64,000 bases of DNA from Escherichia coli (GTDB taxonomy: Bacteria; Pseudomonadota; Gammaproteobacteria; Enterobacterales; Enterobacteriaceae): NCBI RefSeq assembly GCF_048403405.1, contig NZ_CP183129.1; one strand, given 5' to 3'. Positions 482-41,976 of this stretch are shown here, piece by piece (position 1 is the stretch's first letter; each line of letters starts with the position of its first letter). A program made the translations under genes and the position numbers. The notes beneath the pieces are model-generated. The model saw only the letters and a program-made list of their open reading frames with translations. It did no database searches and was not told where the DNA came from.

Positions 482-1234
482 ATGAACCTTGAAGCCTTAC
501 CAAAATATTACTCCCCAAAATCTCTAAAATTGAGCGATGACGCTCCAGCGACAGGCACCGGTTGTTTAACAATTACGGATGTAATGGCAGCGCAGGGGAT
601 GGTGCAGTCGAAAGCACCACTTGGGTTGGCCTTATTTCTGGCAAAAGTTGGTGTTCAGGACCCTCAGTTTGCGATTGAAGGCCTGCTAAATTACGCGATG
701 GCACTGGATAACCCGACATTGAACAAATTGAGTGAAGAAAGCCGGTTACAGATTATTCCTTACCTCGTGAATTTTGCCTTTGCTGATTACTCCAGGTCTG
801 CGGCAAGTAAGGCTCGCTGTGAGCATTGTTCAGGTACGGGATTTTATAATGTATTGCGCGAAGTGGTGAAACACTACAGACGCGGGGAATCTGTAATCAA
901 GGAAGAATGGGTAAAGGAACTATGTCAGCATTGCCATGGTAAGGGCGAAGTCAGCACAGCGTGCAGAGGGTGTAAGGGTAAAGGGATTGTTCTGGATGAA
1001 AAAAGAACCCGGTTTCATGGCGTACCGGTATATAAGATTTGTGGGCGTTGTAATGGAAACCGGTTTAGTCGTTTACCGACCACGCTGGCACGACGTCATG
1101 TCCAGAAGCTGGTACCAGACCTGACCGATTATCAGTGGTATAAGGGGTATGCGGACGTCATTGATAAACTGGTAACAAAGTGCTGGCAGGAAGAAGCATA
1201 CGCGGAAGCGCAATTGAGGAAGGTGACGAGATAA
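482..1234 (+). CDS. quuQ: late-gene antiterminator Q
   Basis: 250 aa, near-identical to recalled K-12 QuuQ ([14 protein letters not shown]...), with Cys-rich zinc-binding motifs. Confidence 0.85.
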
Positions 1235-1337
1235 ATGATTTTTGCTGAAGATGGCGACATGATGTTTGCATTTTTCAAAAAACATGGATAAGATTTTCTC
1301 AACGATGGGCTTTGTGTATCCGACGTTTAGAAAAAAG

Positions 1338-1367
1338 TAGAAAACCCGCTTATAAGCGGGTTTTTGT
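1338..1367. terminator. hairpin plus T-run between quuQ and the csp remnant
   Basis: aaaacccgcttataagcgggttttt: GC stem, loop, U-tract; readable on both strands. Confidence 0.5.
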
Positions 1368-1399
1368 GCTTTAAATGGGGCAATAGAGATATTGAATCT

Positions 1400-1611
1400 C
1401 ATCCCGGGATAAACATTGGCAGTTGAAGGTCCACGCGAACCATTTATCCGGCAAAATTCCACGCGTAATCCTGTGGTAATTTCTTCTGCATCTCGAAGAT
1501 TGAGAGCTGAAACGTGAAGCTGGGCATCGATACGCCATCGGATGGGAATATAAGACCTTTGCTGCTTTTGTAGTCAAAGTTTTTGACAATTCCTGTCATT
1601 TTAGGGGACAG
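1400..1611 (-). pseudogene. cspF/cspH-family cold-shock gene remnant (start codon lost, 1-bp deletion, stop lost)
   Basis: Minus-strand frame gives [22 protein letters not shown], then the next frame gives [42 protein letters not shown]; ancestral ATG position reads CTG; no stop after ANVY. Confidence 0.6.
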
Positions 1612-1909
1612 AAAAACTCCTTAATACTGATAACCTGGTGCACCATACACACGTTCCTGGAGAAAACTACTTTTTTGATAGGGTTGAAGGTGGCTGGATG
1701 TCTAAAATAAACATTGCTTCATATGTTCAACTATGAGTTAATGACTGCGTCGGTTTGAAGAACAGACGATATACGAAGTAGTTTACTAAAGCAGTTCTCA
1801 TTTCAGGTGTTATTCACTTATTCCTTCTTTGAGTCTCTCCAATTAAGTACGAAGTCGTTTCTGTTATGCAAACCATTTATGCCGAAAGGCTCAAGTTAAG
1901 GAATGTAGA

Positions 1910-2125
1910 ATGTCAAATAAAATGACTGGTTTAGTAAAATGGTTTAACGCTGATAAAGGTTTCGGCTTTATTTCTCCTGTTGATGGTAGTAAAGATGTGT
2001 TTGTGCATTTTTCTGCGATTCAGAATGATAATTATCGAACCTTATTTGAAGGTCAAAAGGTTACCTTCTCTATAGAGAGTGGTGCTAAAGGTCCTGCAGC
2101 AGCAAATGTCATCATTACTGATTAA
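1910..2125 (+). CDS. cspB: cold-shock protein, CspB-like
   Basis: 71 aa, [38 protein letters not shown]... with RNP motifs; long AT-rich 5-prime UTR; terminator downstream. Confidence 0.85.
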
Positions 2126-2405
2126 AATTCATCGCTCGTCTGTATACGATAACGAAGAAGGCTGATGCCTGAGTAGAGATACGGACAGAGTAGTGAATAT
2201 TGGATCTCTTTAATAAAAAGTAAGGAGGTCCAATACATGAAACAATGGCCAGCATATTTGGCAAAATCTTAATCAGGAAAAGTATGCTAACCATTGTGGT
2301 GAAGTGCAGGTTTGCTGCATGAATAGTTTCACAGCAGAAGCTAACTGCTGGCATCGCAAAACAAAGTGCGTAAGTGGATGACTCCCACAAAAAGCACCAC
2401 AATCT

Positions 2406-2429
2406 CAAACCCGCTCAGGCGGGTTTTTT
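2406..2429 (+). terminator. rho-independent terminator after cspB
   Basis: aaacccgctcaggcgggtttttt. Confidence 0.6.
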
Positions 2430-2488
2430 ATTATCTGCTTTAAATATATTATTAAAATATAAAAAATACTTGTTACTAATAAAATCAA

Positions 2489-2660
2489 TCAGGCTACAGC
2501 TTTAAGATTTGTCTGGAATACTTTGTTGCAATGAGGGCAGATCAAAAGGGCACCTTTTTGTACTCTTGAAAAACTGTGTTCTGACTCTTGGGTGCAGTTT
2601 GGGCAGGAACATTTAACGAGATAATTACGGCGTGATTTTGAGTCTTTACGTTCTGACATA
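2489..2660 (-). CDS. small zinc-ribbon protein (56 aa), probably the YnfU equivalent
   Basis: MSERKDSKSRRNYLVKCSCPNCTQESEHSFSRVQKGALLICPHCNKVF...; two CxxC pairs; AGGA about 8 nt upstream of the ATG. Confidence 0.5.
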
Positions 2661-2878
2661 GGCTTTTCCTGTATAAATGGCCGTATACAGTACACTAAAT
2701 ATGAAAACATTTCTCGTATTATTATTTTATATGTGACTTTCTTTCAAAATAATTACCCACATTTTTAATGTGTATGTTTTTTTAGCGCCGTTGAGAACAA
2801 CGTGTGCTGTCAAAACTACCCCGTAGACTCCGATCTTTTCAAACATATTGCACCATCCGTGTACATCGGGGTGAGGAT

Positions 2879-3094
2879 ATGAAATCAATGGATAAGTTAA
2901 CAACAGGTGTTGCCTATGGCACATCGGCGGGTAATGCTGGTTTCTGGGCATTGCAGTTACTCGATAAAGTAACTCCGTCACAGTGGGCTGCAATCGGTGT
3001 GCTGGGTAGCCTGGTTTTTGGCCTGCTGACGTATCTGACAAATCTTTATTTCAAGATTAAAGAAGACAGGCGTAAGGCTGCGAGAGGAGAGTAA
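2879..3094 (+). CDS. essQ: phage 21 S-type holin (pinholin) with dual-start motif
   Basis: 71 aa, [26 protein letters not shown]...[15 protein letters not shown], matches recalled S21; Met1 and Met4 give the holin/antiholin start pair. Confidence 0.85.
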
Positions 3095-3098
3095 TCCA

Positions 3099-3650
3099 AT
3101 GACTCAAGACTATGAACTGGTTGTGAAAGGAGTCCGTAATTTTGAGAATAAAGTTACGGTAACTGTAGCCTTACGGGACAAAAAACACTTTGACGGTGAA
3201 ATTTTTGACCTGGACATCTCGCTGGACCGTGTTGAAGGTGCCGCGCTGGAGTTTTATGAGGCAGCAGCCAGAAGGAGCATCAGACAGGTCTTCCTGGATG
3301 TTGCTGCCGGGTTATGTGAAGGGGATGAGCAGTCGCCGGAAAAGCGCCCCATAATTTTAGAGGCGCAGAATGTGTGGATAACCTACAAAGGAAAGCTACC
3401 GGGAAGAATTACTGGTTCTCTGAAGACGCCACCGACGGCATTGCGGTCAGAAAAAGATGATATTGAATCGCCCATTGAAAAACTGGAGGGCAGCGTCGCT
3501 GATCTGAATAAAAAATTGTCGGTGCTGATTCCTTCTGAAGATGAAAAAAAACGCCGCGATGAGCAGTTTGCGGCGTTTTACGATTATTGCATTGAAGTTA
3601 CTCGCAGGAATTTTGTGAAGATTTTTGAGGAGGGTAAATCTCTTCAGTAA
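3099..3650 (+). CDS. YdfR-like protein with divergent, extended C-terminus (183 aa)
   Basis: N-terminal ~75 aa match recalled K-12 YdfR (MTQDYELVVKGVRNFENKVTVTVAL...); remainder differs and is longer than the 103-aa K-12 protein; lies between holin and endolysin. Confidence 0.55.
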   Translation: MTQDYELVVKGVRNFENKVTVTVALRDKKHFDGEIFDLDISLDRVEGAALEFYEAAARRSIRQVFLDVAAGLCEGDEQSPEKRPIILEAQNVWITYKGKLPGRITGSLKTPPTALRSEKDDIESPIEKLEGSVADLNKKLSVLIPSEDEKKRRDEQFAAFYDYCIEVTRRNFVKIFEEGKSLQ

Positions 3651-3858
3651 GCTTATTGGCGGACGCTGCAATTAATTCAGGAAGGTCCGCAAGGTCATCT
3701 GTCAGTGGATATGATGAAAAATCGGCGGCAGTTCTGTTAAGAAGCGCTTTAACTAATTCCTTTTCCTTCTCCGGCAACAAGTTGATTAGAGCTACGACTG
3801 CTTGCCTGAGTGCGATTAAATCAGCAAAAGTTTGTTTAGGTAGATTTGTGTAATCCAT
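3598..3858 (-). CDS. hypothetical acidic 86-aa protein, convergent with and overlapping the 3-prime end of the YdfR-like ORF
   Basis: ATG with AGAGG about 7 nt upstream; predicted helical, acidic; no recognised family. Confidence 0.35.
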   Translation of the reverse strand: MDYTNLPKQTFADLIALRQAVVALINLLPEKEKELVKALLNRTAADFSSYPLTDDLADLPELIAASANKLTEEIYPPQKSSQNSCE

Positions 3859-4999: not shown

Positions 5000-5362
5000 A
5001 TTAATATTAAATCGGATTATTTTTAGCGCTGAATGTGAAATTTAAATAAAAAGGACTCTTCCATGAGTCAAAATCCTTGAAATCTTAAGGGTAAGATAAA
5101 AGGTCATTAGACAGAATGACACGTTTTATTAATAAATAAAGCTATTGTTTCATTCGTGTGTTTTTCTTTACAAAAGTAATCCTTGCTATGGTTGGTTAAT
5201 CATGCGTTAATGGTGTTCTGGTTTGTTACAAAATTATCTGAAGCAGTCATTGTTATAATTTTATTATTTGTACCTCTTGAGATTTCCTTGTTGGTTTTTC
5301 TCTCTGATATTTTTTTTCGGACCATTCTGCCCAAGGGCTAACTTCTTCAAAAGGTAATAATG

Positions 5363-5575
5363 ATGTCTAACAAAATGACTGGTTTAGTGAAATGGTTTAA
5401 CCCTGAAAAAGGTTTTGGTTTCATCACGCCGAAAGATGGTAGCAAAGATGTGTTTGTCCATTTCTCAGCTATTCAGAGCAACGATTTCAAAACGTTAACT
5501 GAGAATCAGGAAGTCGAATTTGGTATTGAGAACGGACCTAAAGGCCCCGCGGCTGTTCATGTTGTGGCACTTTGA
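5363..5575 (+). CDS. cspI: cold-shock protein, CspI-like
   Basis: 70 aa, [43 protein letters not shown]...; long AT-rich leader. Confidence 0.85.
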
Positions 5576-5775
5576 GGTAGATAATATTACAAACCATATT
5601 CACTTTAGATGCCCGTGTTGCCATGGTTCTCAGTATAGAACATCATCTTTTGATGTTTCTGACAGGAATCCTTTCGGGGCAAAATGTATCTTTTGTAAAT
5701 CAATGATGATTACATTTGATAATATTTCACAATACTTAAATGTTAGCCGTCTATCGTTAGATTTAAGAAAGTGAA

Positions 5776-7286: not shown

Positions 7287-7306
7287 ACGGGGCGGGAGCG
7301 TCGCGG
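7287..7306. promoter_or_regulatory. cohesive-end site (cosN-like) for terminase
   Basis: ACGGGGCGGGAGCGTCGCGG closely parallels lambda cosN context ACGGGGCGGCGACCTCGCGG; lies ~185 bp upstream of the terminase small subunit start, as in lambda. Confidence 0.65.
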
Positions 7307-7473
7307 AAAAAGGCTAGTTTTTGCATTTCCATGGCGGCGGCAGCATGTTTGGTAATTTATTGATAATTAAAAGTTATTTCCCTTTTCACCTGTACAATAT
7401 TTTTTTCTTCCTGTCATTAGACCAGTTTGCAATTAATTGAAATATATAAATAAACCTGATTTTCACCTGCCAG

Positions 7474-8013
7474 ATGGAGTTGCTTATGTCAAATGTGAGC
7501 GGGATCGGTGATGCTTATTACTGGAGTGTTTTTAAAATCGCCGAGGCCTTTGGGCTTCACCGGGACACAGTAAAAAAACGGCTCCTCGCGGCCAACACTC
7601 CTGTGGCTGCGACTGTCAGGGGGAACCCCGTTTACGCCCTGCAGCATGTCGGGCCCGCCCTGTTTAGTGTGAAGCATGAGGCAGCAGACTCTGTTCATGA
7701 TCCATCCCGTATGGAGCCGAAAGAGAGAAAGGACTGGTACCAGTCTGAAAATGAAAGGATCAAGCTGGAAAAGGAGCAGCGAAAACTCATCCCAGTTGAT
7801 GAAGTAGTCATCGTCTATTCGTCCATGAGAAAGGCTGTCGTCCAGGTTCTGGAGACAATTCCGGATGTTCTTGAACGCGATTGCGCTCTGACTCCTCAGG
7901 CCGTCGGCGTTGTACAGCAGGCCATTGATGACCTGCGATACACTCTTCAGGAAAAATCCTACGAGGCTTGTGCTGCTGAATTAATTCCTGATGAGGAAGG
8001 AGAGAGTCTCTAG
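7474..8013 (+). CDS. terminase small subunit
   Basis: 179 aa; N-terminal helix-turn-helix (SVFKIAEAFGLHRDTVKKRL); immediately upstream of the large subunit and downstream of cos. Confidence 0.7.
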   Translation: MELLMSNVSGIGDAYYWSVFKIAEAFGLHRDTVKKRLLAANTPVAATVRGNPVYALQHVGPALFSVKHEAADSVHDPSRMEPKERKDWYQSENERIKLEKEQRKLIPVDEVVIVYSSMRKAVVQVLETIPDVLERDCALTPQAVGVVQQAIDDLRYTLQEKSYEACAAELIPDEEGESL

Positions 8014-8021
8014 GAGGAATA

Positions 8022-10121
8022 ATGGGTTTTTCATCAGCCCGAAATTTGGGAAGGGACATATCGGCAGGATTTTCCCCACCACGTCGCATGCCGATTTCGG
8101 AGGCTGTTAAAAAATTCATGCGTGTTCCCAAGGGGGCTGGTAACTCGGTGCCATGGGATCCTGAACTGACACCCTACATCATTGAGCCCATGAACTGCCT
8201 GGCATCGCGTGAATACGATGCGGTGATTTTTGTTGGTCCTGCGCGAACAGGGAAGACCATTGGTCTGATCGATGGATGGATTGTCTATACCATCGTTTGC
8301 GATCCTTCGGACATGCTCGTTGTGCAGATGACCGAAGATAAGGCCCGCGAGCATTCTAAAAAGCGCCTCGACAGAACGTTCAGAAGCAGTGCGGCGGTAA
8401 AGAAAAGAATGAGTCCACGTCGTAACGACAATAATGTCCATGATAAGACGTTCAGGGATGGCTCGTTCCTTAAAATTGGTTGGCCCTCGGTCAACATTAT
8501 GTCGTCGTCGGATTACCGGTTTGTCGCCTTAACCGATTACGACCGTTTTCCGGAGAATATCGACAGCGAGGGTGATGGTTTCTCCCTGGCCTCAAAACGT
8601 ACCACCACATTTATGTCCGCCGGGATGACTCTGGTGGAGAGCTCGCCGGGACGTGACATCTGCGACAGCAAATGGCGACGTAAGTCGCCTCATGAAGCGC
8701 CACCGACGACTGGTATTCTTTCCCTTTACAATCGTGGTGACCGCCGCCGCTGGTACTGGCCATGTCCGCACTGCGGTGAATATTTTCAGCCAGCTATGGA
8801 TGCCATGACCGGCTACCGTAATGAACCGGATCCCTTTAAAGCCAGTGAGGCGGCGTATCTACTTTGCCCGCACTGCAGCGGCATTATCACTGCGGAGAAA
8901 AAGCGTGAGCTCAATAGTGCAGGAGTCTGGTTGCGTGAAGGTCAGGTCATTGATCGTAACGGCAACGTTTCCGGTGAACCGCGCCGCTCCCGTATCGCCA
9001 GTTTCTGGATGGAAGGGCCAGCTGCTGCGTATCAGACCTGGGCGCAACTGGTTTACAAATTACTGACTGCAGAACAGGAGTATGAAGCGACAGGAAGCGA
9101 AGAAACACTCAGGGCGGTTATCAACACCGACTGGGGATTGCCTTATCTTCCTCGTGCCAGCATGGAGCAACGAAAAAGTGAACTGCTTGAGCAGCGGGCA
9201 GAGCCAGTTCCTTCCTGCAGTGTGCCGGATGGCGTTAATTTCCTTGTGGCGACAGTGGATGTGCAGGCGGGACGTCATCGCCGTTTTGTGGTTCAGGTAA
9301 CTGGCTATGGCAGTCGTGGCGAACGCTGGATTATTGATCGTTACAATATCACGCAGTCATTGCGCAGTGACTGCGACGGGGAGAGCCAGCGAATTGATCC
9401 GGCCAGCTATCCGGAAGACTGGGATGTCCTGCTGACGGATGTTTTTCATAAAAGCTGGCCGCTGGCCTCCGATCCTTCTCAACAAATGCGACTGATGGCA
9501 ATGGCGGTGGACTCCGGCGGTGAAGACGGGGTCACTGATAATGCCTATAAATTCTGGCGTCGTTGCCGTCGTGATGGCCTTGGTAAACGTATTTACCTGT
9601 TTAAGGGCGACAGCATCCGGCGCGCAAAACTGATCACCCGTACATTCCCTGATAACACCGGACGAACGGGCCGACGGGCGCAGGCCGCAGGTGATGTGCC
9701 GCTCTGGCTTCTTCAGACGGATGCACTGAAAGACCGGGTGAATAACGCGTTATGGCGTGACTCGCCAGGTCCCGGCTATGTGCATTTCCCTGACTGGCTG
9801 GGGAGCTGGTTTTACGACGAACTGACGTATGAAGAGCGGAGCAGTGACGGGAAATGGAGTAAGCCGGGTCGCGGTGCCAACGAAGCTTTTGACCTGATGG
9901 TGTATGCCGAGGCTCTGGTCATTCTGCATGGATACGAAAAGATCCGCTGGCCGGATGCACCGGAGTGGGCGAGCCGGGAAACCTGGCTGGAGTGTGTCCC
10001 GGACAGTACCGAACCGTCACCCTCACCGGAACCGGTATCCACGCCTGTTAAAAAACAAAAACGGAAGAAAACAGTAACTGACGATGTTAACCCCTGGCTG
10101 ACTTCCGGAGGATGGTTATGA
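8022..10121 (+). CDS. terminase large subunit (lambda GpA family)
   Basis: 699 aa; Walker A motif GPARTGKT; C-terminal nuclease-like region; gene order. Confidence 0.9.
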   Translation: MGFSSARNLGRDISAGFSPPRRMPISEAVKKFMRVPKGAGNSVPWDPELTPYIIEPMNCLASREYDAVIFVGPARTGKTIGLIDGWIVYTIVCDPSDMLVVQMTEDKAREHSKKRLDRTFRSSAAVKKRMSPRRNDNNVHDKTFRDGSFLKIGWPSVNIMSSSDYRFVALTDYDRFPENIDSEGDGFSLASKRTTTFMSAGMTLVESSPGRDICDSKWRRKSPHEAPPTTGILSLYNRGDRRRWYWPCPHCGEYFQPAMDAMTGYRNEPDPFKASEAAYLLCPHCSGIITAEKKRELNSAGVWLREGQVIDRNGNVSGEPRRSRIASFWMEGPAAAYQTWAQLVYKLLTAEQEYEATGSEETLRAVINTDWGLPYLPRASMEQRKSELLEQRAEPVPSCSVPDGVNFLVATVDVQAGRHRRFVVQVTGYGSRGERWIIDRYNITQSLRSDCDGESQRIDPASYPEDWDVLLTDVFHKSWPLASDPSQQMRLMAMAVDSGGEDGVTDNAYKFWRRCRRDGLGKRIYLFKGDSIRRAKLITRTFPDNTGRTGRRAQAAGDVPLWLLQTDALKDRVNNALWRDSPGPGYVHFPDWLGSWFYDELTYEERSSDGKWSKPGRGANEAFDLMVYAEALVILHGYEKIRWPDAPEWASRETWLECVPDSTEPSPSPEPVSTPVKKQKRKKTVTDDVNPWLTSGGWL

Positions 10122-10330
10122 ACCAGAATGATATCGAAGCCATGATTCAGCGTTATACGGAAGCTGAAATGGCGGTGCTGGACGGAAAATCCGTCACCTT
10201 TAATGGTCAGCAGATGACCATGGAAAACTTATCTGAGATCCGGCAGGGACGGCAGGAGTGGGAGCGCCGCCTTGCGGCTCTGATTACACGACGACGGGGG
10301 CATCCCGGGTACCGGCTGGCGAGGTTCTGA
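10112..10330 (+). CDS. head-tail joining protein (gpW-like)
   Basis: 72 aa; C-terminal RRRGHPGYRL resembles lambda gpW tail; position between terminase and portal. Confidence 0.7.
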   Translation: MVMNQNDIEAMIQRYTEAEMAVLDGKSVTFNGQQMTMENLSEIRQGRQEWERRLAALITRRRGHPGYRLARF

Positions 10331-11838
10331 TGGCAATTCTTGATGATGTGATTGGCGTTTTTTCACCAGGATGGAAAGCGGCAAGGCTGCGTTCCCGGGC
10401 GGTGATCCAGGCTTATGAGGCCGTAAAAACGACGCGGACACACAAAGCCCGGCGGGAAAACCGAACTGCCGACCAGTTAAGCCTCTACGGGGCCGTGTCG
10501 TTACGTGAGCAGGCCCGTTACCTTGATAACAACCACGATCTGGTCATTGGTGTATTTGACAAGCTGGAAGAACGGGTGGTGGGGAAAAACGGGATTATTG
10601 TCGAGCCACATCCGGTATTACGCAATGGGGCCATTGCCCGTGATCTGGCAGCGGAGATACGCACCCGATGGAGTGAATGGTCTGTCAGTCCGGAAGTTAC
10701 CGGGCAGTTTACCCGTCCGATGCTGGAACGTCTGATGCTGCGTACCTGGCTGCGCGATGGTGAGGTGTTTGCCCAGATGGTTTCCGGGCGCATAAACAGC
10801 CTGACGCCTTCTGCCGGTGTTCATTTCTGGCTGGAGGCACTCGAGCCAGACTTTATTCCCATGACCAGTGATGAGAGCAACAGGCTGAATCAGGGCGTGT
10901 TTGTTGATGACTGGGGGCGTCCCGAAAAATATCTGGTGTATAAAAGTCGTCCTGTATCCGGACGGCAGATGGAAACCAAAGAAGTGGATGCAGAGCGAAT
11001 GCTGCATCTTAAATTTGTTCGCCGTCTGCACCAGATGCGCGGGACGTCTTTATTGTCCGGTGTGCTGATCCGCCTCAGTGCCCTGAAAGAATATGAAGAT
11101 TCTGAGCTGACTGCAGCAAGGATCGCTGCTGCTCTGGGGATGTACATCCGCAAAGGCGACGGACAGAGCTATGAAACGGATGGTAATGACAGCAAGGAGA
11201 ATGAACGCGAGCTTACCATTCAGCCAGGCATTATTTACGACGATCTGAAACCCGGCGAAGAAATCGGAATGGTGAAGTCGGATCGCCCCAATCCTAACCT
11301 TGAAACTTTTCGTAATGGTCAGTTGCGTGCCGTGGCGGCGGGCAGTCGTCTGAGTTTTTCCAGTACAGCGCGCAACTATAACGGCACTTACAGCGCCCAG
11401 CGTCAGGAGCTGGTTGAATCCACTGATGGCTACCTGATCCTGCAGGACTGGTTTATTGGTGCCGTCACCCGCCCGATGTATCGTGCCTGGCTGAAACAGG
11501 CTGTGGCATCCGGTGTTATCAGGCTACCCCGCGATCTTGACCGTTCTTCACTGTATACCGCGGTGTATTCCGGACCGGTGATGCCGTGGATTGACCCTGT
11601 TAAGGAGGCTGAGGCCTGGAAAATTCAGATTCGTGGTGGAGCGGCGACAGAATCAGACTGGGTACGTGCAGGTGGTCGTAATCCGGATGATGTCAAACGT
11701 CGGCGCAAGGCAGAAATTGATGAAAACCGCAAGCTGGATCTGGTATTTGATACCGATCCGGCCAGTGATAAAGGAGGCAGCAGTGCCGCAACGAAACGAC
11801 AGGAGCCGCAGCACACCGACGACCAGTCCGAAGAATAA
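10330..11838 (+). CDS. portal protein (lambda gpB-like)
   Basis: 502 aa from MAILDD...; size and position; start chosen at first Met after the gpW-like stop. Confidence 0.85.
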   Translation: MAILDDVIGVFSPGWKAARLRSRAVIQAYEAVKTTRTHKARRENRTADQLSLYGAVSLREQARYLDNNHDLVIGVFDKLEERVVGKNGIIVEPHPVLRNGAIARDLAAEIRTRWSEWSVSPEVTGQFTRPMLERLMLRTWLRDGEVFAQMVSGRINSLTPSAGVHFWLEALEPDFIPMTSDESNRLNQGVFVDDWGRPEKYLVYKSRPVSGRQMETKEVDAERMLHLKFVRRLHQMRGTSLLSGVLIRLSALKEYEDSELTAARIAAALGMYIRKGDGQSYETDGNDSKENERELTIQPGIIYDDLKPGEEIGMVKSDRPNPNLETFRNGQLRAVAAGSRLSFSSTARNYNGTYSAQRQELVESTDGYLILQDWFIGAVTRPMYRAWLKQAVASGVIRLPRDLDRSSLYTAVYSGPVMPWIDPVKEAEAWKIQIRGGAATESDWVRAGGRNPDDVKRRRKAEIDENRKLDLVFDTDPASDKGGSSAATKRQEPQHTDDQSEE

Positions 11839-13810
11839 TTCCTGGTTCAGGATGCAGGCTGGTCACCAGAGTGACGCGGATATTTATATTTATGACGAGA
11901 TTGGTTTCTGGGGTGTTACAGCGAAGCAGTTTATCAGTGATCTGAATGCACTGGGCGATATCACCCACATTAATCTCCATATCAATTCACCGGGTGGCGA
12001 TGTCTTTGAAGGCATCGCCATTTTTAATGCGCTGAAAACACATGGTGCGTCCATTACCGTTTATGTCGACGGTGTGGCGGCGTCAATGGCGTCGGTCATT
12101 GCGATGGTGGGAAACCCGGTCATTATGCCGGAAAACACCTTCATGATGATTCATAAACCATTTGGCTTTACGGGCGGTGATGCGGAGGACATGCGCACCT
12201 ATGCCGACCTGCTCGATAAGGTTGAGGCGGTTCTGTTACCCGCTTATGCACAGAAAACCGGGAAAACCACCGATGAAATTGCTGCCATGCTGGCGGATGA
12301 GACCTGGATGTCCGGTGCCGAATGTCTGGCACATGGATTTGCTGATCAGGTGACGCCAGCCGTTAAGGCAATGGCATGTATTCAGTCAAAACGTACAGAG
12401 GAATTTAAAAAGATGCCGGAATCCATTCGAAACATGATTACTCCGCCACGCAACAGTGCTCCACGCGTACAGGATGATGAACCTGCAGCCTCCCGGACGC
12501 CAGTGCAGGCAGCAGCACCCGTGGTGGATGAAAACAGTATCCGTGCGCAGGTACTGGCAGAGCAAAAAGCGCGTGTAAACGGTATTAATGATCTGTTTGC
12601 CATGTTTGGCGGGCGTTATCAGACGCTGCAGGCTCAGTGTCTTGCCGATCCTGAGTGTTCGCTGGAGCAGGCCCGCGAAAAGCTGTTGAACGAGATGGGG
12701 CGCGAGTCCACGCCATCCAATAAAAATACACCGGCTCATATTTATGCTGGTAACGGTAATTTTGTGGGGGACGGGATCCGCCAGGCGCTGATGGCGCGTG
12801 CCGGATTTGAAAAAACCGAACGTGATAATGTCTACAACGGGATGACCCTGCGTGAATATGCCCGTATGTCACTGACTGAACGGGGTATTGGGGTTTCCGG
12901 TTATAACCCGATGCAGATGGTCGGTGCGGCGTTCACCCACAGTACGTCTGACTTCGGTAATATTCTGCTGGATGTTGCGAACAAAGCCATTCTGCAGGGC
13001 TGGGAAGATGCTCCTGAAACCTATGAACAATGGACGCGGAAAGGTCAGTTGTCTGATTTTAAAATTGCCCATCGTGTGGGTATGGGGGGCTTCAGTGCTC
13101 TGCGTCAGGTGCGTGAAGGGGCGGAATATAAATACGTCACCACCGGAGATAAACAGGCCACTATTGCACTGGCGACCTATGGCGAGCTGTTCAGTATCAC
13201 CCGTCAGGCCATTATCAATGATGATCTGAATATGCTGACCGATGTCCCGATGAAACTGGGCCGTGCGGCGAAATCCACTATTGCCGATCTGGTTTATGCC
13301 ATTCTGACGTCTAACCCGAAAATCTCCACAGATAATGTAAGTCTGTTCGATAAAGCGAAACATGCAAACGTACTGGAGAGCGCTGCAATGGACGTGGCAT
13401 CGCTGGATAAAGCCCGCCAGTTGATGCGCGTTCAGAAAGAGGGGGAGCGTCATCTGAATATTCGTCCTGCGTTCGTACTGGTACCGACGGCGATGGAGTC
13501 TGTTGCTAACCAGGTCATTCGCTCCTCAAGTGTCAAGGGGGCTGACATTAACGCCGGTATTATTAACCCGGTGAAAGATTTTGCGACCGTTATTGCAGAG
13601 CCTCGTCTTGATGATAACAGCCAGACCACCTTCTACCTGGCTGCGTCAAAAGGCTCCGATACGATTGAAGTGGCTTATCTCAACGGTGTGGATACGCCAT
13701 ATATTGATCAGATGGAGGGCTTCAGTGTGGATGGCGTGACAACGAAAGTGCGTATTGACGCCGGTGTCGCGCCAGTTGATCACCGCGGTCTGGTGAAATG
13801 TACGGCGTAA
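11783..13810 (+). CDS. prohead protease (ClpP/S49-like) fused in one frame to the major capsid protein
   Basis: GTG start after AAGGAGG; N-terminal ClpP-like region (IYIYDEIGFWG...HINSPGGDVFEG...); C-terminal ~330 aa capsid-like; no separate capsid gene downstream. Confidence 0.8.
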   Translation: MPQRNDRSRSTPTTSPKNNSWFRMQAGHQSDADIYIYDEIGFWGVTAKQFISDLNALGDITHINLHINSPGGDVFEGIAIFNALKTHGASITVYVDGVAASMASVIAMVGNPVIMPENTFMMIHKPFGFTGGDAEDMRTYADLLDKVEAVLLPAYAQKTGKTTDEIAAMLADETWMSGAECLAHGFADQVTPAVKAMACIQSKRTEEFKKMPESIRNMITPPRNSAPRVQDDEPAASRTPVQAAAPVVDENSIRAQVLAEQKARVNGINDLFAMFGGRYQTLQAQCLADPECSLEQAREKLLNEMGRESTPSNKNTPAHIYAGNGNFVGDGIRQALMARAGFEKTERDNVYNGMTLREYARMSLTERGIGVSGYNPMQMVGAAFTHSTSDFGNILLDVANKAILQGWEDAPETYEQWTRKGQLSDFKIAHRVGMGGFSALRQVREGAEYKYVTTGDKQATIALATYGELFSITRQAIINDDLNMLTDVPMKLGRAAKSTIADLVYAILTSNPKISTDNVSLFDKAKHANVLESAAMDVASLDKARQLMRVQKEGERHLNIRPAFVLVPTAMESVANQVIRSSSVKGADINAGIINPVKDFATVIAEPRLDDNSQTTFYLAASKGSDTIEVAYLNGVDTPYIDQMEGFSVDGVTTKVRIDAGVAPVDHRGLVKCTA

Positions 13811-13896
13811 ACGTCGCAGACAACAACTCTGATGGCCCGTAAGGGCTTTTTTTGTACCTGAAATCAGCCCCTGAACGGGGCTGTGCGGAGACAGTT

Positions 13897-14220
13897 ATGG
13901 CAAAGAATTTTGTAGAAGAAGGAAAAACGGTGGCGATTGTTGCCAGTGCAGCCATCAGCAGCGGAGAGCTGGTGCAGGTGGGTGATGTTTTTGCGGTGGC
14001 GCTGACCGATATTCCACAGGGTGAAACAGGCGACGGCATGACCGAAGGTGTGTTTATGCTGCCTAAGCTGAAAACGGATGACATGAAAACGGGTAAGAAG
14101 GTTTATCTGAAGTCCGGAAAAGTTCAGCTGACTAACAGCGGCTCTGATCCGCTGGTCGGGGTTGTCTGGGCAGATGCCGGAACCAGTGCAGAAGAAGTGC
14201 CGGTAAAACTCAATGTCTGA
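13897..14220 (+). CDS. small head-associated protein (possible decoration/completion protein)
   Basis: 107 aa from MAKNFVEEGK...; position right after the capsid gene. Confidence 0.5.
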   Translation: MAKNFVEEGKTVAIVASAAISSGELVQVGDVFAVALTDIPQGETGDGMTEGVFMLPKLKTDDMKTGKKVYLKSGKVQLTNSGSDPLVGVVWADAGTSAEEVPVKLNV

Positions 14221-14488
14221 TCCCTTTTCCCGGCTGGCAGCGCGTATGGATGCGATCACGGTCAGAAAGATGGGAAAGACAGCCTCGATTAATGATGTCG
14301 ATATGACTGTGATCCCGGGAGAAACACTGGCAGAGCTGAATGCTCTGTCCGGACCTGCGGTCTCTCTGGTGGTGTTTTCTTCGGGATACCGCCCACGGCG
14401 CGGGGATCGCGTTGTTTATGACGGACAACAATGGACGGTCACACGGCATGAACGCTTTAACGGTAAGCCAATGATCTTTATTGAGTAA
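14213..14488 (+). CDS. head-tail connector/head completion protein
   Basis: 91 aa; position between head and tail modules. Confidence 0.5.
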   Translation: MSDPFSRLAARMDAITVRKMGKTASINDVDMTVIPGETLAELNALSGPAVSLVVFSSGYRPRRGDRVVYDGQQWTVTRHERFNGKPMIFIE

Positions 14489-14499
14489 AGAGGTGTGGG

Positions 14500-15090
14500 A
14501 TGAAGGGGCTTGAGAATGCCATCCGCAATCTGAACAGCCTTGATACCCGTATGGTGCCACAGGCCAGCGCATGGGCGATAAACCGTGTGGCACAGAAAGC
14601 GGTCTCGGTTGCCACCCGGCAGGTTGCCGGGAATATCGTTGCGGGAGATAACCAGGTGAAAGGGATCCCCCTGAAACTGGTACGTCAGCGTGTCCGGGTG
14701 TTTAAAGCCAGTCCGTCAGGAAAAATGACGGCCAGGATCCGCGTTAACCGGGGCAATCTGCCCGCCATCAAACTGAACACAACACGGCGGCGTGCTGGTG
14801 AAGGACTGAGAGTGGGAAAATACTTTTTCCGGGGGGCATTTGTTCAGCAACTGGCGAATGGCCGCTGGCATGTTCTGAGGCGTCTTCCTGAAGCGCGTTT
14901 TGCAACAGGGCATGACCATCAGGGCAGGCCAAGAAAAAATCGTCTTCCTGTGGAGGTAGTGAAAATCCCGCTGTCCGGACCGCTGACACAGGCATTTGAA
15001 GATGCCCGCGACCACATCATTGCTGCGGAAATGCCGAAACAGCTGGGGTATGCACTGAAACAACAACTGAGGTTATGGCTGACCCGATGA
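14500..15090 (+). CDS. minor tail protein, gpZ-like
   Basis: 196 aa, basic; position corresponds to lambda Z. Confidence 0.55.
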   Translation: MKGLENAIRNLNSLDTRMVPQASAWAINRVAQKAVSVATRQVAGNIVAGDNQVKGIPLKLVRQRVRVFKASPSGKMTARIRVNRGNLPAIKLNTTRRRAGEGLRVGKYFFRGAFVQQLANGRWHVLRRLPEARFATGHDHQGRPRKNRLPVEVVKIPLSGPLTQAFEDARDHIIAAEMPKQLGYALKQQLRLWLTR

Positions 15091-15488
15091 ACCGACATAC
15101 ACAAATCCGCCAGGTCGTACTGGCACGCCTTCGGGAACAGTGTGGAGACAGCGCCACGTTTTTTGACGGGCTTCCGGCATTTATTGATGCGCAGGAACTG
15201 CCTGCCGTGGCGGTGTGGCTGAGTGATGCTCAGTACACCGGAAAAATGACGGATGAAGATGACTGGCAGGCTGTTCTGCATATTGCCGTCTTCATCCGGG
15301 CACAGGCACCGGATTCAGAGCTGGATATGTGGATGGAGAGCACCATTTTTCCGGCCCTGAATGATGTACCGGCACTTTCCGGACTCATCGACACCCTGAA
15401 CCCACTCGGTTTTAACTATCAACGTGATAATGAGATGGCCACCTGGGCGATGGCGGAAATCACGTACCAGATCACGTACACGAATTAA
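15075..15488 (+). CDS. tail terminator, gpU-like
   Basis: 137 aa; position immediately before the major tail gene. Confidence 0.55.
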   Translation: MADPMNRHTQIRQVVLARLREQCGDSATFFDGLPAFIDAQELPAVAVWLSDAQYTGKMTDEDDWQAVLHIAVFIRAQAPDSELDMWMESTIFPALNDVPALSGLIDTLNPLGFNYQRDNEMATWAMAEITYQITYTN

Positions 15489-15498
15489 GGAGGTGGTA

Positions 15499-16242
15499 AT
15501 GACCACACCAAATCCACTGGCAAAGACGAAAGGTGCGGGGACGACGTTCTGGATGTATACCGGCAACGGCGATGCGTTTGCGAACCCTTTGTCGGACACT
15601 GACTGGCTGCGTCTTGCGATGGTGAAGGATCTGCAACCTGGCGAAATGACCGCTGATGCAGAAGATGACACTTATCTCGATGATGAAGATGCAGACTGGA
15701 AAACGACAACCCAGGGGCAGAAATCCGTTGGTGATACTTCGGCGACGCTGGCCTGGCGTCCGGGTGACAGCGGGCAGAAAAAACTGGTTCAGTTGTTCGA
15801 CTCCGGTGAAGTCTGCGCGTTTCGTATCAAATATCCCAACGGCACTGTTGATGTTTTCCGTGGCTGGCTGAGCTCACTGGGTAAAACCATTGCCTCAAAA
15901 GACGTGATGACCCGCACTGTGAAAATCAGCGGTGTGGGGCGTCCGTATCTGGCAGAGGAAGGCACTGAAACCGTGAGCGTTACCGGGCTGACAGTATCAC
16001 CGGCGTCTGCCAGTGTAAAAGTGGGAGCAACCACCACGCTGACCTTTACAGTAAAACCTGACGGAGCCAGTGACAAAGCGATCAGTGTGCATTCGTCAGA
16101 TCCACAGACTGCCACGGTTACCCTGAACGGACTTGTGGCCACGGTAAAAGGCGTGAAGCAGGGCAGTGTCAGCATTGTGGGCATGACCGCTGACGGGAAT
16201 TTTGTGGCTGTGACTGCGGTGACTGTCAGCGCAGCAGGTTAA
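15499..16242 (+). CDS. major tail protein (gpV-like) with C-terminal Ig-like domain
   Basis: 247 aa after AAGGAGG; C-terminal Big_2-like repeat (VTGLTVSPASASVKVGATTTLTFTVKP...). Confidence 0.8.
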   Translation: MTTPNPLAKTKGAGTTFWMYTGNGDAFANPLSDTDWLRLAMVKDLQPGEMTADAEDDTYLDDEDADWKTTTQGQKSVGDTSATLAWRPGDSGQKKLVQLFDSGEVCAFRIKYPNGTVDVFRGWLSSLGKTIASKDVMTRTVKISGVGRPYLAEEGTETVSVTGLTVSPASASVKVGATTTLTFTVKPDGASDKAISVHSSDPQTATVTLNGLVATVKGVKQGSVSIVGMTADGNFVAVTAVTVSAAG

Positions 16243-16299
16243 CAGGACGATACTCATCATTTGCCCCGGTTATGCGGGGCTTTTTTGCAGGTGGAGAAC

Positions 16300-16689
16300 A
16301 TGATGTTTCTGAAACAGGACACGTTTAATTATGAAAAACAGTCCGTGGTGCTCAGTGAGCTGTCCGGGCTGCAGAGAATTGAATATCTGACGTTTGTTCA
16401 GCAGCGAACGGCAAAGTTTGATGCCGTGGAGGGAGAACTGCCGGAGGCTGAACGACAGATTGCTTTTCTGCGGATGGGGATGGATATCAATGCCTGGCTG
16501 GTTTCCCGCTCACTGTGGAATGCGGATCAGTCTAAGGATGTAGAGACGCTTTGCGCATCCGTTATTACAACATGGTCGTATGATGCCCTGGGTGCGGGGG
16601 CGGAGATGGTTCTGTCGCTGAGCGGTATGGGGGCCATTGATAATGCCGTGGATGATGAGCATGAGGCGCTGACGCCGGAAAAGTCCTGA
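16300..16689 (+). CDS. tail assembly chaperone gpG
   Basis: MFLKQDTF...SELSGLQRIEYL... parallels lambda gpG (MFLKTESF...SELSALQRIEHL). Confidence 0.75.
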   Translation: MMFLKQDTFNYEKQSVVLSELSGLQRIEYLTFVQQRTAKFDAVEGELPEAERQIAFLRMGMDINAWLVSRSLWNADQSKDVETLCASVITTWSYDALGAGAEMVLSLSGMGAIDNAVDDEHEALTPEKS

Positions 16690-17027
16690 CGCGGGAAATG
16701 CAGTTTGTCATGCGGCTTGCCCGGGAGTTCCGGCGGGCAGACTGGCGGCGGATGCTGTCGGAAATGTCGGCCACTGAGCTTGGTGAGTGGGGCGATTATT
16801 TCCGGATGCAGAGCTTCAGTGATGTGTGGATGGATGCGCAGTTTGCCTCGCTGAAGGCATTGATCGTGAGAATGGTGTCCGGCAGCAGTGATGCTGCGGT
16901 GGCTGATTTCAGCCTTTTACCGGAAGAGAACGGGATACCGGAGCGAACGGACGAAGAACTGATGCATCTTGGGGAAGGTATTTCCGGAGGTGTGCGTTAT
17001 GGACCAGATAGCCAACCTGGTCATTGA
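16665..17027 (+). CDS. gpT reading frame, expected to be expressed as a G-T fusion by -1 programmed frameshift
   Basis: Frame -1 relative to G is open from 16665 and overlaps the G 3-prime end; conserved lambdoid G/T arrangement. Confidence 0.6.
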   Translation, partial: GADAGKVLTREMQFVMRLAREFRRADWRRMLSEMSATELGEWGDYFRMQSFSDVWMDAQFASLKALIVRMVSGSSDAAVADFSLLPEENGIPERTDEELMHLGEGISGGVRYGPDSQPGH

Positions 17028-20000
17028 TTTGGGGATTGATGCGGCAGAGTTTAAAAATGAAATTCCCCGTATCAAAAACCTTCTGAATGGTGCAGCCAGC
17101 GATGCAGAACGGTCTTCTGCCCGTATGCAGCGTTTTATGGAGCGTCAGACTCAGGCCGCCCGGCAGACAACGCAGGCAGCTTCTTCGGCTGCAACAGCCG
17201 CATCCGTCCATGCGCAGACGGTGGAGAAGAACGCACAGGCTCATGAACGCATGGCCCGCGAGGTGGAGAAAACCCGCCAGCGCATGGAGGCACTGAGCCA
17301 GAAAATGCGCGAGGAACAGGCGCAGGCCATCGCTCTGGCGGAGGCTCAGGATAAAGCGGCTGCTGCGTTTTATCGTCAGATTGACAGTGTGAAACAGGCC
17401 AGTGCGGGGCTGCAGGAATTACAGCGTATTCAGCAGCAGATCCGACAGGCCAGAAACAGTGGCGGGATTGGTCAGCAGGATTATCTGGCGCTGATTTCTG
17501 AGGTTACGGCGAAAACCCGTGTTCTTACGCAGGCTGAGGCAGAGGCTACCCGACAGAAAGTGGCGTTTATCCGTCAGCTTAAAGAGCAGGCAACCCGCCA
17601 GAATCTTTCTTCTTCTGAGTTGCTTCGTGCCAGGGCTGCCCAGCTGGGGGTAAGCAGTGCTGCAGAAGTGTATATCCGCAAAATGGAGCGGGCAGGAAAA
17701 GCCACGCATTCGCTGGGTCTGAAAAGTGCAGCGGCCCGCCAGGAGATAGGCGTTCTGATAGGTGAACTGGCCCGCGGCAATTTAGGGGCGCTGAGGGGAT
17801 CCGGGATAACGCTGGCTAACCGTGCCGGATGGATAGACACACTGATGTCACCGAAAGGCATGATGCTGGGCGGGGTTATTGGCGGTATTACCGCGGCCGT
17901 CTATGGTCTGGGTAAAGCCTGGTATGACGGTCAGAAGGAGGGGGAAGAATTTAACCGCCAGCTGTCGCTGACGGGGCATTATGCCGGAGTCACTGCCGGG
18001 CAACTGTGGACGCTCAGTCGTGCTATTTCCGGGAATGGTATCACGCAACATGCTGCAGCCGGTGCGCTGGCTCAGGTGGTGGGGAGTGGTGCATTTCGTG
18101 GAAACGATATCGGTATGGTGGCGAGAGCTGCCGCACAGATGGAGCGATCGGTTGGCCAGTCGGTCAGCGATACCATAAATCAGTTTAAGCGGCTGAAGGA
18201 TGATCCTGTAAATGCCGCGAAGTCTCTGGACAATGAGCTGCATTTTCTTACTGCCACTCAGCTTGAGCAGATACGCGTCCTTGGAGAGCAGGGGCGGTCC
18301 AGTGATGCGGCACGGATAGCCATGTCTGCACTGGCAGAGGAAACCGGTCGGCGTACTGCGGATATTGATAATAACCTCAATGCGCTGGGCAGTACGCTGC
18401 AAACTTTGTCTGACTGGTGGAAGCAGTTCTGGGATGCGGCCATGAATATTGGTCGTGAAGATTCGCTGGATGCGCAGATTGCCACTTTGCAGGAGAAAGT
18501 GTCGCGGGCGAAAAGACTCCCCTGGACGGCATCATCTTCTCAGGTTGAATACGATCAGCAGCGTCTTAACGATCTTCAGGAGAAAAAACGCCAGAAGGAT
18601 TTGCAGGATGCAAAAGAGCAGGCAGAGCGGAATTATCAGGAGCAACAGAAACGCCGTAATGCTGAAAATGCTGCACTGAACCGGATGAATGAAACGGAAG
18701 CTGCACGACATCAGCGTGAAATTGCGCGTATTAATGCCATGCAGTACGCCGATCAGGCTGTCAGGGATGCGGCGATACAACGTGAAAATGAACGTTACGA
18801 GAAAGCCCTGGCATCCGGTAAGAAAAAAACACGCGAAACCCGTAATGATGAGGCCACCCGGTTATTGCTGCAGTACAGTCAGCAACAGGCACAGGTGGAA
18901 GGACAGATTGCTGCTGCCAGACAGTCAGCAGGCATTGCCACGGAAAGGATGACAGAAGCGCATAAACAGCTCCTGGCTCTGCAGCAGCGCATCAGCGACC
19001 TGGACGGGAAAAAACTGACGGCAGATGAAAAGAGTGTGCTGGCCCGTAAAGATGAACTGATTCAGGCACTGACGCTGCTGGATGTAAAACAGCAGGAGCT
19101 TCAGAAACAGACGGCACTCAACGAGCTGAAGAAAAAAACAATTCAGCTGACCAGTCAACTGGCTGAAGAAGAGCGCGCTCAGCGTCAGCAACATGACCTG
19201 GATATCGCCACGGTGGGTATGGGTGATCAGCAGCGACAGCGATATCAGGTACAACTGAGTCTTCGCCAGAAATACCAGCAACAGCTGGAGCAGTTGAGGC
19301 GGGATAGTGAGCAGAAAGGGACATATAACACGGATGACTACAGAAAGGCCGAGCAGGCGCTGACGGAGAGCCTGAACCGACAACTGAATGAGAATCGCCG
19401 TTACTGGCAACAGCTTGAAGTTGTGCAGGGTAACTGGAAAAACGGAGTCCTGCGTGCATTTCAGGATTTTACCGTGGATGCAGATAATACGGCAGAAACA
19501 GCAGAACAGGTGTTCTCGTCAGCCTTCAGCAACATGGGAAATGGCCTGGCAACTTTTGTCACTACCGGCAAACTCAATTTCAAATCCTTCACCTCTTCTG
19601 TGCTGTCAGATATGGCGAAAATCCTGGCGCAGGCAACCATGATGAAATCGATAAAAGGGATTGGCAGTGTACTGGGATTTGATCTCAGCAGCCTTTCCCT
19701 GAATGCCAATGGGGGGATTTATCAGTCTGCTGATTTGAGTCGTTACAGTGGCACGGTGGTTAACCGTCCGACGTTTTTTGCTTTTGCAAAAGGCGCGGGT
19801 GTGATGGGGGAAGCGGGACCTGAAGCCATTCTGCCATTGCGTCGTGGTGCTGACGGTAAGCTGGGGGTTGTGGCGGATATTGGGGGTTCAGGTATGGCGA
19901 TGTTTTCCCCGCAGTACAACATCGAGATCAATAACGATGGCACGAACGGGCAGATAGGTCCGGCTGCCCTGAAGGCGGTTTATGACCTCGGGAAAAAAGC

Positions 20001-20064
20001 GGCAGCGGACTTTATGCAACAGCAGGCCCGTGATGGTGGTCGGTTAAGTGGAGCATATCGGTAA
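16999..20064 (+). CDS. tail tape-measure protein (gpH-like)
   Basis: about 1020 aa, long coiled-coil Ala/Gln/Arg-rich middle; position. Confidence 0.9.
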   Translation: MDQIANLVIDLGIDAAEFKNEIPRIKNLLNGAASDAERSSARMQRFMERQTQAARQTTQAASSAATAASVHAQTVEKNAQAHERMAREVEKTRQRMEALSQKMREEQAQAIALAEAQDKAAAAFYRQIDSVKQASAGLQELQRIQQQIRQARNSGGIGQQDYLALISEVTAKTRVLTQAEAEATRQKVAFIRQLKEQATRQNLSSSELLRARAAQLGVSSAAEVYIRKMERAGKATHSLGLKSAAARQEIGVLIGELARGNLGALRGSGITLANRAGWIDTLMSPKGMMLGGVIGGITAAVYGLGKAWYDGQKEGEEFNRQLSLTGHYAGVTAGQLWTLSRAISGNGITQHAAAGALAQVVGSGAFRGNDIGMVARAAAQMERSVGQSVSDTINQFKRLKDDPVNAAKSLDNELHFLTATQLEQIRVLGEQGRSSDAARIAMSALAEETGRRTADIDNNLNALGSTLQTLSDWWKQFWDAAMNIGREDSLDAQIATLQEKVSRAKRLPWTASSSQVEYDQQRLNDLQEKKRQKDLQDAKEQAERNYQEQQKRRNAENAALNRMNETEAARHQREIARINAMQYADQAVRDAAIQRENERYEKALASGKKKTRETRNDEATRLLLQYSQQQAQVEGQIAAARQSAGIATERMTEAHKQLLALQQRISDLDGKKLTADEKSVLARKDELIQALTLLDVKQQELQKQTALNELKKKTIQLTSQLAEEERAQRQQHDLDIATVGMGDQQRQRYQVQLSLRQKYQQQLEQLRRDSEQKGTYNTDDYRKAEQALTESLNRQLNENRRYWQQLEVVQGNWKNGVLRAFQDFTVDADNTAETAEQVFSSAFSNMGNGLATFVTTGKLNFKSFTSSVLSDMAKILAQATMMKSIKGIGSVLGFDLSSLSLNANGGIYQSADLSRYSGTVVNRPTFFAFAKGAGVMGEAGPEAILPLRRGADGKLGVVADIGGSGMAMFSPQYNIEINNDGTNGQIGPAALKAVYDLGKKAAADFMQQQARDGGRLSGAYR

Positions 20065-20393
20065 TGGAGACGTTTCACTGGAAAGTGCGCCCGGATATGA
20101 ATGTGGTATCAGAGCCGAAAGTGGTGACAGTGAAGCTGGGCGATGGTTATGAACAGCGTCGTGCGGCGGGACTGAATAACCAGTTGTCGACTTACAGCGT
20201 GACGATACGTGTTCGTAAATGTGAACACCCATCTTTAAAAGCCTTTCTGGAACGGCACGGTGGCGTCCGTGCATTTCAGTGGACGCCACCTTATGACTGG
20301 AAACCGATCAGGGTGGTTTGTCGTAAATGGTCGGCAAGCGTGGGGGCGCTGTGGGTAACCATAACGGCAGATTTTGAACAGGTCGTGGCATAG
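20064..20393 (+). CDS. minor tail protein M
   Basis: 109 aa; size and position as lambda M. Confidence 0.85.
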   Translation: METFHWKVRPDMNVVSEPKVVTVKLGDGYEQRRAAGLNNQLSTYSVTIRVRKCEHPSLKAFLERHGGVRAFQWTPPYDWKPIRVVCRKWSASVGALWVTITADFEQVVA

Positions 20394-20402
20394 GAGGCTC
20401 TG

Positions 20403-21101
20403 ATGCAGGATATTCCACAGGAAACACATCATGAGACGACACGCCTCACTCAGTCAGCCCAGGTGGTGCTCTGGGAAATCGATCTGACAGAGGTCGGTGG
20501 TGAACGTTATTTTTTCTGTAATGAGCAGAACGAAAAAGGTGAGCCGGTTACCTGGCAGGGGCGGCAGTATCAGGCATACCCCATTCAGGGGACGGGATTT
20601 GAACTGAACGGCAAGGGCAGTGCTGCCCGTCCGACACTGACGGTTTCTAACCTGCACGGAATGGTCACCGGGATGGCGGAAGACCTGCAGAGTCTGGTCG
20701 GCGGAACGGTGGTCAGGCGTAAGGTTTACGCCCGTTTTCTGGATGCGGTGAACTTCGTCAACGGAAACAGTGACGCCGATCCGGAGCAGGAGGTGATCAG
20801 CCGCTGGCGCATCGAGCAGTGCAGCGAACTGAGCGCGGTCAGTGCCTCTTTTGTACTGTCCACGCCGACGGAAACGGACGGTGCTGTTTTTCCGGGGCGC
20901 ATCATGCTGGCTAATACCTGCACCTGGACCTATCGCGGTGATGAGTGCGGTTATCACGGTCCGGCGGTCGCGGATGAATATGACCAGCCGACGTCCGATA
21001 TCACGAAGGATAAATGCAGCAAATGCCTGAGTGGTTGTAAGTTTCGCAATAACGTCGGCAACTTTGGCGGCTTCCTTTCCATTAACAAACTTTCGCAGTG
21101 A
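20403..21101 (+). CDS. minor tail protein L
   Basis: 232 aa; C-terminal Cys cluster (CSKCLSGCKFRNN) as in lambda L. Confidence 0.85.
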   Translation: MQDIPQETHHETTRLTQSAQVVLWEIDLTEVGGERYFFCNEQNEKGEPVTWQGRQYQAYPIQGTGFELNGKGSAARPTLTVSNLHGMVTGMAEDLQSLVGGTVVRRKVYARFLDAVNFVNGNSDADPEQEVISRWRIEQCSELSAVSASFVLSTPTETDGAVFPGRIMLANTCTWTYRGDECGYHGPAVADEYDQPTSDITKDKCSKCLSGCKFRNNVGNFGGFLSINKLSQ

Positions 21102-22395: not shown

Positions 22396-22398
22396 TGA

Positions 22399-25850
<3,452 letters not shown>

Positions 25851-41683: not shown

Positions 41684-41777
41684 GAAAACTGATGCTACTG
41701 TGTCAACGATCCGTTATCAGTGCAGGAAAATGCCTGTTAGCGTAAAAGCAAAACACAAATCTATCCATGCAAGCATT

Positions 41778-41806
41778 CACCGCCGGTTTACTGGCGGTTT
41801 TTTTTC
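41778..41806 (+). terminator. strong rho-independent terminator about 95 nt downstream of dgcZ
   Basis: ccgccggtttactggcgg followed by eight T. Confidence 0.55.
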
Positions 41807-41880
41807 GCCGTCATAAAAATCAGGCCCCTTGTACACAACTGTAACAAGGGGCCGGTTAGGTGAGGGATTATCTCCGTTCA

Positions 41881-41976
41881 TTAGTCATCCCATTTGTGGC
41901 TGAAATACGCGGCCAGAAAACCAGAAAATAAAATTATTCCCAGTACGGCCATAAAAACATTCATATTACCCAGCAT
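41881..41976 (-). CDS. mgtS: 31-aa membrane protein MgtS (YneM)
   Basis: Minus-strand translation MLGNMNVFMAVLGIILFSGFLAAYFSHKWDD; minus-strand hairpin plus U-tract just downstream. Confidence 0.8.
   Translation of the reverse strand: MLGNMNVFMAVLGIILFSGFLAAYFSHKWDD

Follow-up and report, generated by a model that had tools for sequence, protein, structure and literature searches.

The beginning of a 64,000-nt stretch of Escherichia coli DNA (hereafter the window) raises the question of how one member of a divergent pair of cold-shock genes came to be dead beside an intact partner, and whether what is left of it still serves any purpose. This part of the window belongs to a lambdoid prophage of the Qin type and forms its late-control region. 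A preliminary description, made from the sequence alone, had placed a decayed gene of the cspF/cspH kind at 1400-1611, adjoining the antiterminator gene Q and next to an intact cspB, and had read the situation as selective decay of one of the pair. The locus is laid out as follows.

Before ydfT: 3' end of ydfU, the first gene in the order of the window (annotation of matching loci).
482-1234, plus strand: ydfT (quuQ), Q antiterminator of the Qin-type prophage (Pfam PF03589, E 1.1e-54; annotation of identical loci).
1341-1364, strand not given: GC-rich hairpin terminator between ydfT and the cspF remnant (terminator scan).
1410-1611, minus strand: probable cspF pseudogene remnant, corresponding to codons 1-68 of K-12 cspF less one base.
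1749-2141: cspA-type 5' UTR thermoregulator of cspB (Rfam RF01766, 158.8 bits).
1910-2125, plus strand: cspB, intact, the divergent partner of cspF (Pfam CSD, E 9.8e-32).
3' of cspB: ynfU, followed by holin and endolysin genes.

This is the gene order of K-12 Qin, except that K-12 has ynfS (29 codons) between cspF and ydfT. In that cryptic prophage cspF (b1558) occupies the same position, in the series ydfU, ydfT (Q), cspF (convergent), cspB (divergent), ynfU and holin. The hairpin at 1341-1364 has homologous sequence labelled "terminator" in the records of phages SfV and Ayreon. An Rfam search gave zero matches within 1410-1611, the nearest being the cspB thermoregulator, and when the plus strand was scanned for the late promoter PR' 3' of Q, 1150-2500 had no consensus sigma-70 site. 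The two neighbours that had been named are as described: Q is ydfT, and cspB, besides its cold-shock domain match, has 0 substitutions relative to K-12 when these are counted along the alignment.

The identity of the remnant was established by aligning the minus strand of 1235-1910 with the DNA of K-12 cspF and cspH. Relative to cspF, 1410-1611 is ~90% identical over 201 nt, and this homology is flanked by ydfT (Q) and cspB, as in K-12, and runs on the other strand from cspB, as orthology by descent would have it. The remnant is thus within the interval first given for it, though homology stops at 1410 and not at 1400. K-12 cspH (b0989) is a chromosomal paralogue of cspF from the same clade, paired with cspG; it has a TTG start, an N-terminus reading MSRKMTGIVK and a C-terminus reading ANVYLS. 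Like cspF it diverges from a cspA-type gene, but unlike the remnant it is intact and sits at another locus, and its role here is that of an outgroup only. Most of the aromatic residues with which other cold-shock proteins bind RNA are absent from CspF and CspH (PMC6719143). Conceptually repaired, the product of the window has about 89% amino-acid identity to K-12 CspF, with eight differences. The alignments confirm the two lesions first noticed and add a third, which had been missed.

1611-1609, minus strand: CTG in place of the annotated TTG start of K-12 cspF and cspH (alignments).
Between 1535 and 1534, minus strand: 1-bp deletion of the third base of codon 26 (alignment to K-12).
1410/1409, minus strand: junction of a 258-bp deletion, equivalent to NC_000913.3 1,642,058-1,642,315.

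In K-12 cspF and cspH the annotated start is TTG; the remnant keeps a Shine-Dalgarno-like AAGGAG at 1617-1622, 5 nt upstream, and has CTG where the start should be. The ancestral codon at 1611-1609 is therefore TTG, not ATG, and its change to CTG would be one of three inactivating lesions. At the site of the single-base deletion, GATGGTCGT in K-12 has become GATGGCGT in the window, which shifts the start frame into a TGA at 1446-1444. The 258-bp deletion starts after the second base of codon 68 and takes with it the last base of that codon, codons 69-70, the stop, the spacer between cspF and ynfS, all of ynfS and sequence downstream of ynfS, so that cspF homology now ends 46 nt short of the terminator at 1341-1364. 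It would thus strip both the C-terminal end with its stop and a neighbouring gene whose product, YnfS, is a small protein of K-12 confirmed by epitope tagging (PMC6001520). The ending ANVYLS plus stop that marks the C-terminus in this family is accordingly absent from the remnant.

Translation of the three minus-strand frames, with a Pfam scan of the resulting ORFs, indicates what these lesions leave. The frame from the start runs for 26 residues and then through out-of-frame residues to the TGA, and the C-terminal half of the domain (42 residues) is in a different frame from the N-terminal half. This C-terminal frame reads on, antisense into ydfT, as far as 1075-1073, and it does so because the 258-bp deletion removed its stop. 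The preliminary description had found no in-frame stop; that holds for the C-terminal frame, but the start frame does stop. Neither the 51-aa ORF from an internal ATG (1599-1597; ORF 1599-1444) nor the 129-aa ORF that contains the C-terminal part has any Pfam match, and an intact product from an alternative start or frame was ruled out on these translations. There is no uninterrupted ORF with a cold-shock domain of ~65 residues; only the conceptual repair, with one base restored and the K-12 end added, matches CSD (PF00313, E 3.4e-17, positions 1-65 of 66). Any translation would provide about 22 native residues after Met5, followed by out-of-frame sequence to the TGA. Taken together, these features make it very probable that 1410-1611 is a non-functional relic of a prophage cspF gene of the CspF/CspH clade, carrying three inactivating lesions.

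This pseudogene is an ordinary one and is already annotated in RefSeq. At identical or near-identical loci PGAP applies the label "cspF, frameshifted; incomplete; missing C-terminus", for example to DUT84_RS24560 of E. coli AMSCJX02, which is 100% identical over window positions 1300-1900, and to QUD66_RS08290 of JNE181771, which is 98.7% identical over the same positions; both are the allele of the window, and their differences from it are not of substance. The label agrees with the earlier view that one member of the cspF/cspB pair is dead and the other intact. As expected of a pseudogene, the break in the frame and the loss of the end that set it apart from intact homologues recur across independent assemblies. 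Of 5426 complete E. coli genomes, 215 are hit by a 71-base probe placed over the 1-bp deletion, 208 of these with an exact match; a second probe, placed over the 258-bp junction, aligns along its full length in 214. The dead haplotype, with its three lesions linked, is therefore present in ~4% of complete E. coli genomes (about 215/5426) and its decay is not specific to one strain. Among the carriers are ATCC 25922, strains of the Shiga-toxin-producing and avian pathogenic types, and isolates from a wide range of hosts and countries. Of the seven carriers that do not match exactly, two were looked at: MSI001 and FCI56 both keep the three lesions, the former with an additional +1 insertion and the latter with additional substitutions.

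Such numbers leave a practically negligible chance that the frameshift, the absent 3' end or both are errors of sequencing or assembly in a cspF that is truly intact. Against this stand the 208 independent complete genomes that are exact over the 71 bases around the 1-bp deletion, the 214 in which the 258-bp junction is spanned, and phage Tritos, which carries both lesions. What can be said for an error is that one record, CP123276.1, encodes an intact CspF of the window type, P0001, the only such protein found in a database protein search. The genome in question is 4,641,690 bp long, at most 38 bp off MG1655, and around cspF (1638755-1644967) it differs from MG1655 by 399 substitutions and a single 1-bp gap over 6 kb. 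It is K-12-like at every indel state, and its 258-bp segment covering the cspF 3' end and ynfS is 100% K-12, whereas the rest of the locus is 6.7% diverged. The combination of K-12 indel states, non-K-12 substitutions and MG1655-like length is the pattern of a reference-guided consensus. CP123276.1, which is not in the RefSeq collection, is probably such a consensus on MG1655 and would in that way have produced a spurious intact CspF entry; P0001 was set aside as evidence for an intact allele.

A further question is whether the gene died where it now lies. Counts of substitutions per 100 bp reveal a sharply bounded island of divergence.

1283-1745 (~460 bp): divergence island centred on the remnant, with 43 substitutions relative to K-12 (about 9%).

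On its flanks divergence from K-12 is about 1% (1-1200) and 0.4% (1801-3100); non-coding 1750-1910 together with cspB has 0-2 differences, and ydfT about 1%. Between the window and K-12 cspF, dS is 0.20. A tenfold excess over adjacent non-coding sites is more than neutral decay would yield, which argues that the island is an old divergent haplotype placed by recombination. As read from this distribution of substitutions, the dead allele is an old haplotype brought in by recombination or phage transfer and not the outcome of recent decay in this strain. Gene conversion from cspH was considered as a source and rejected, the differences between window and K-12 agreeing with cspH at only four scattered sites.

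It is unlikely, by comparison, that all lesions and substitutions arose in place, through neutral decay in the strain's own Qin lineage and without import. Lesions such as pseudogenes commonly show, and a concentration of amino-acid changes on the window branch, would both suit decay in place; confinement of the ~9% divergence to 1283-1745, between neighbours with 0-2 differences or about 1%, would not. The same is true of mosaic alleles with a crossover inside cspF (PEC408, for example), of the spread of carriers over many hosts and countries, and of the presence of the haplotype in an active phage. Two artificial chimeras were used as queries in the search for mosaics, one joining the window 5' half to the K-12 3' half and the other the reverse. 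Among the matches listed, all carriers of the deletion junction have a window-type 5' half, at 92.0-92.9% identity to the K-12/window chimera, and the search with the reverse chimera found no match listed in which the deletion accompanies a K-12-like allele. The dead allele thus seems to spread in one piece, through homologous recombination or through phage transfer, and not to decay separately in each strain.

The edge of the island near 1745 coincides with the start, at 1749, of the Rfam match to the cspA-type 5' UTR of cspB. The transcribed region of cspB is identical to K-12, but the expected place of its promoter, just upstream of 1749, falls within the divergent haplotype.

Changes along each branch, counted by eye from the alignment with cspH as outgroup, bear on the history of selection. 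Amino-acid changes are distributed 6:0 between the window and K-12 branches (R3P, T11N, G17S, V30A, L58S, A63T) and synonymous changes 3:4, with two further sites differing among all three sequences. A Tajima-type test on the 6:0 amino-acid counts, done by hand on these small numbers, gives a chi-square of 6 and p about 0.014. The dN/dS ratio is 0.37 between the window and K-12 cspF and 0.14 between cspF and cspH; the former is still below 1, which was counted against the reading as a dead gene. The pattern fits a relaxation of constraint on the branch of window-type sequences. Some of these substitutions are shared with apparently functional alleles (V30A also occurs in a K-12-like CspF, P0003, and Y14 and S17 in CspF of E. 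albertii), and the divergence therefore cannot all be decay that followed inactivation.

The order of the lesions is illuminated by mosaic alleles that have the CTG start and an intact ORF, found with the chimera of window 5' half and K-12 3' half. E. coli PEC408 (WP_094323086.1) provides the example, and the identity band expected of such alleles contains roughly 43 genomes. Like the window, this type has the promoter side, the AAGGAG, the CTG start and R3P, T11N and G17S; unlike the window, it has a K-12-like 3' part, an intact ORF and ynfS. Its differences from K-12 are four nonsynonymous changes (R3P, T11N, G17S, C53Y) and no synonymous ones. Related database alleles include one with a 2-residue deletion in the N-terminal MTGIVK segment (P0010) and one with T22P (P0004). 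PGAP calls the PEC408-type cspF functional with a CTG start (PEC408 coordinates 1640-1852); mosaic alleles of this kind may nevertheless be non-functional already. Since alleles exist that have the CTG start, show no other break in the ORF and yet already carry damaging changes, the comparison suggests that the start-codon change would have come first and relaxed selection, with the 1-bp and 258-bp deletions following later.

The element that houses the remnant is full length, unlike the cryptic Qin of K-12, and is a lambdoid prophage related to phage Tritos. Window positions 7290-25000 are 98.1% identical to the structural module of Tritos and 97.4% identical to phage cdtI, and Tritos has the same cspF remnant bar one substitution, unannotated in its record. 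In the adherent-invasive strain LF82 Tritos is prophage 3, and it makes both virions and plaques (PMC9928086). Expression in the LF82 lysogen is 59-fold above local background for its cspB and 93-fold for its cspI, and these two genes are counted among its lysogen-expressed accessory genes (morons), a list from which cspF is absent (PMC9928086). Other active phages differ from it: the related 2H10 has an intact cspF identical to that of K-12, and PhiR42_1 and HannyBb match over the length of the K-12-type undeleted locus. Given active phages with either state, cspF is dispensable for the phage, and its loss is not required for activity.

Two further readings would give the remnant, or its making, a purpose. 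It is highly doubtful that a shortened product still functions, whether as the 51-aa ORF, as a CspF restored by frameshifting or as an RNA antisense to the Q-dependent late leader. In older records the 51-aa ORF is found on 115 contigs under the names "hypothetical protein" or "cold-shock protein"; the AAGGAG upstream of the CTG is a good Shine-Dalgarno-like sequence; and the remnant is convergent to the late transcription unit. Yet the ATG of this ORF is ~17 nt from the AAGGAG, its product would preserve no more than about 22 residues of the domain and finds no match in Pfam, and no slippery motif can be read at the site of the shift. The extra indel and substitutions of MSI001 and FCI56 lie inside the ORF, and with 2H10 intact and PhiR42_1 and HannyBb matching over the undeleted length neither state of the locus is required. 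Selection for the loss of cspF and ynfS, for instance through an end to convergent transcription in the late-operon leader of an active phage, has somewhat more in its favor and is still quite unlikely. Both genes lie antisense in the stretch that leads from Q to cspB and the lysis genes, the haplotype is found in the active phage Tritos, and the deletion cleanly removes the 3' parts of both as far as the terminator. The intact cspF of active 2H10 and the undeleted length matched by PhiR42_1 and HannyBb speak against it, however, as does the frequency of the K-12-type intact allele, present in about 1330 genomes against about 215, or ~six times as many; three independent lesions, with private ones added in some carriers, resemble drift and not a single selected event.

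A relic that has lost its function thus remains the preferred reading. The remnant would have no role as a protein gene and would persist as passenger DNA in the leader that separates Q from cspB and the lysis genes. A related idea, that the antisense cspF-ynfS module is a dispensable cassette whose loss or remnant transcript tunes expression of late genes or of cspB in Tritos-like phages, is very unlikely; if it were true, the remnant would be a selected regulatory state and not neutral debris. In itself the case matters little. It is a clean and well-documented instance of a moron turned pseudogene in a lambdoid prophage. At this locus about 4% of complete E. coli genomes have neither a functional CspF nor a functional YnfS, which fits the two proteins being dispensable. 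The lessons concern annotation: the CTG start that PGAP accepts for intact mosaic alleles may belong to genes that are already dead; an absent stop was the trace of a 258-bp deletion that also took ynfS; and an apparent reference-guided consensus, CP123276.1, appears to have yielded a spurious intact CspF entry.

Several other features of the window were observed in passing. A second cspA-type thermoregulator (Rfam, 112.8 bits) is found at 5205-5621 on the plus strand, where related loci annotate cspI, and the Hfq-binding sRNA STnc560 (Rfam, 281.9 bits) at 41674-41887 on the same strand. K-12 homology is interrupted from ~3304 to ~3962. An ORF of 183 aa at 3099-3650 (plus strand) occupies the slot of the 103-aa ydfR of K-12 and phage Tritos, with an 86-aa ORF at 3598-3858 on the opposite, minus strand; in phage 2H10 an equally large ORF, of 552 bp, takes the position of the 183-aa ORF, after the holin gene.
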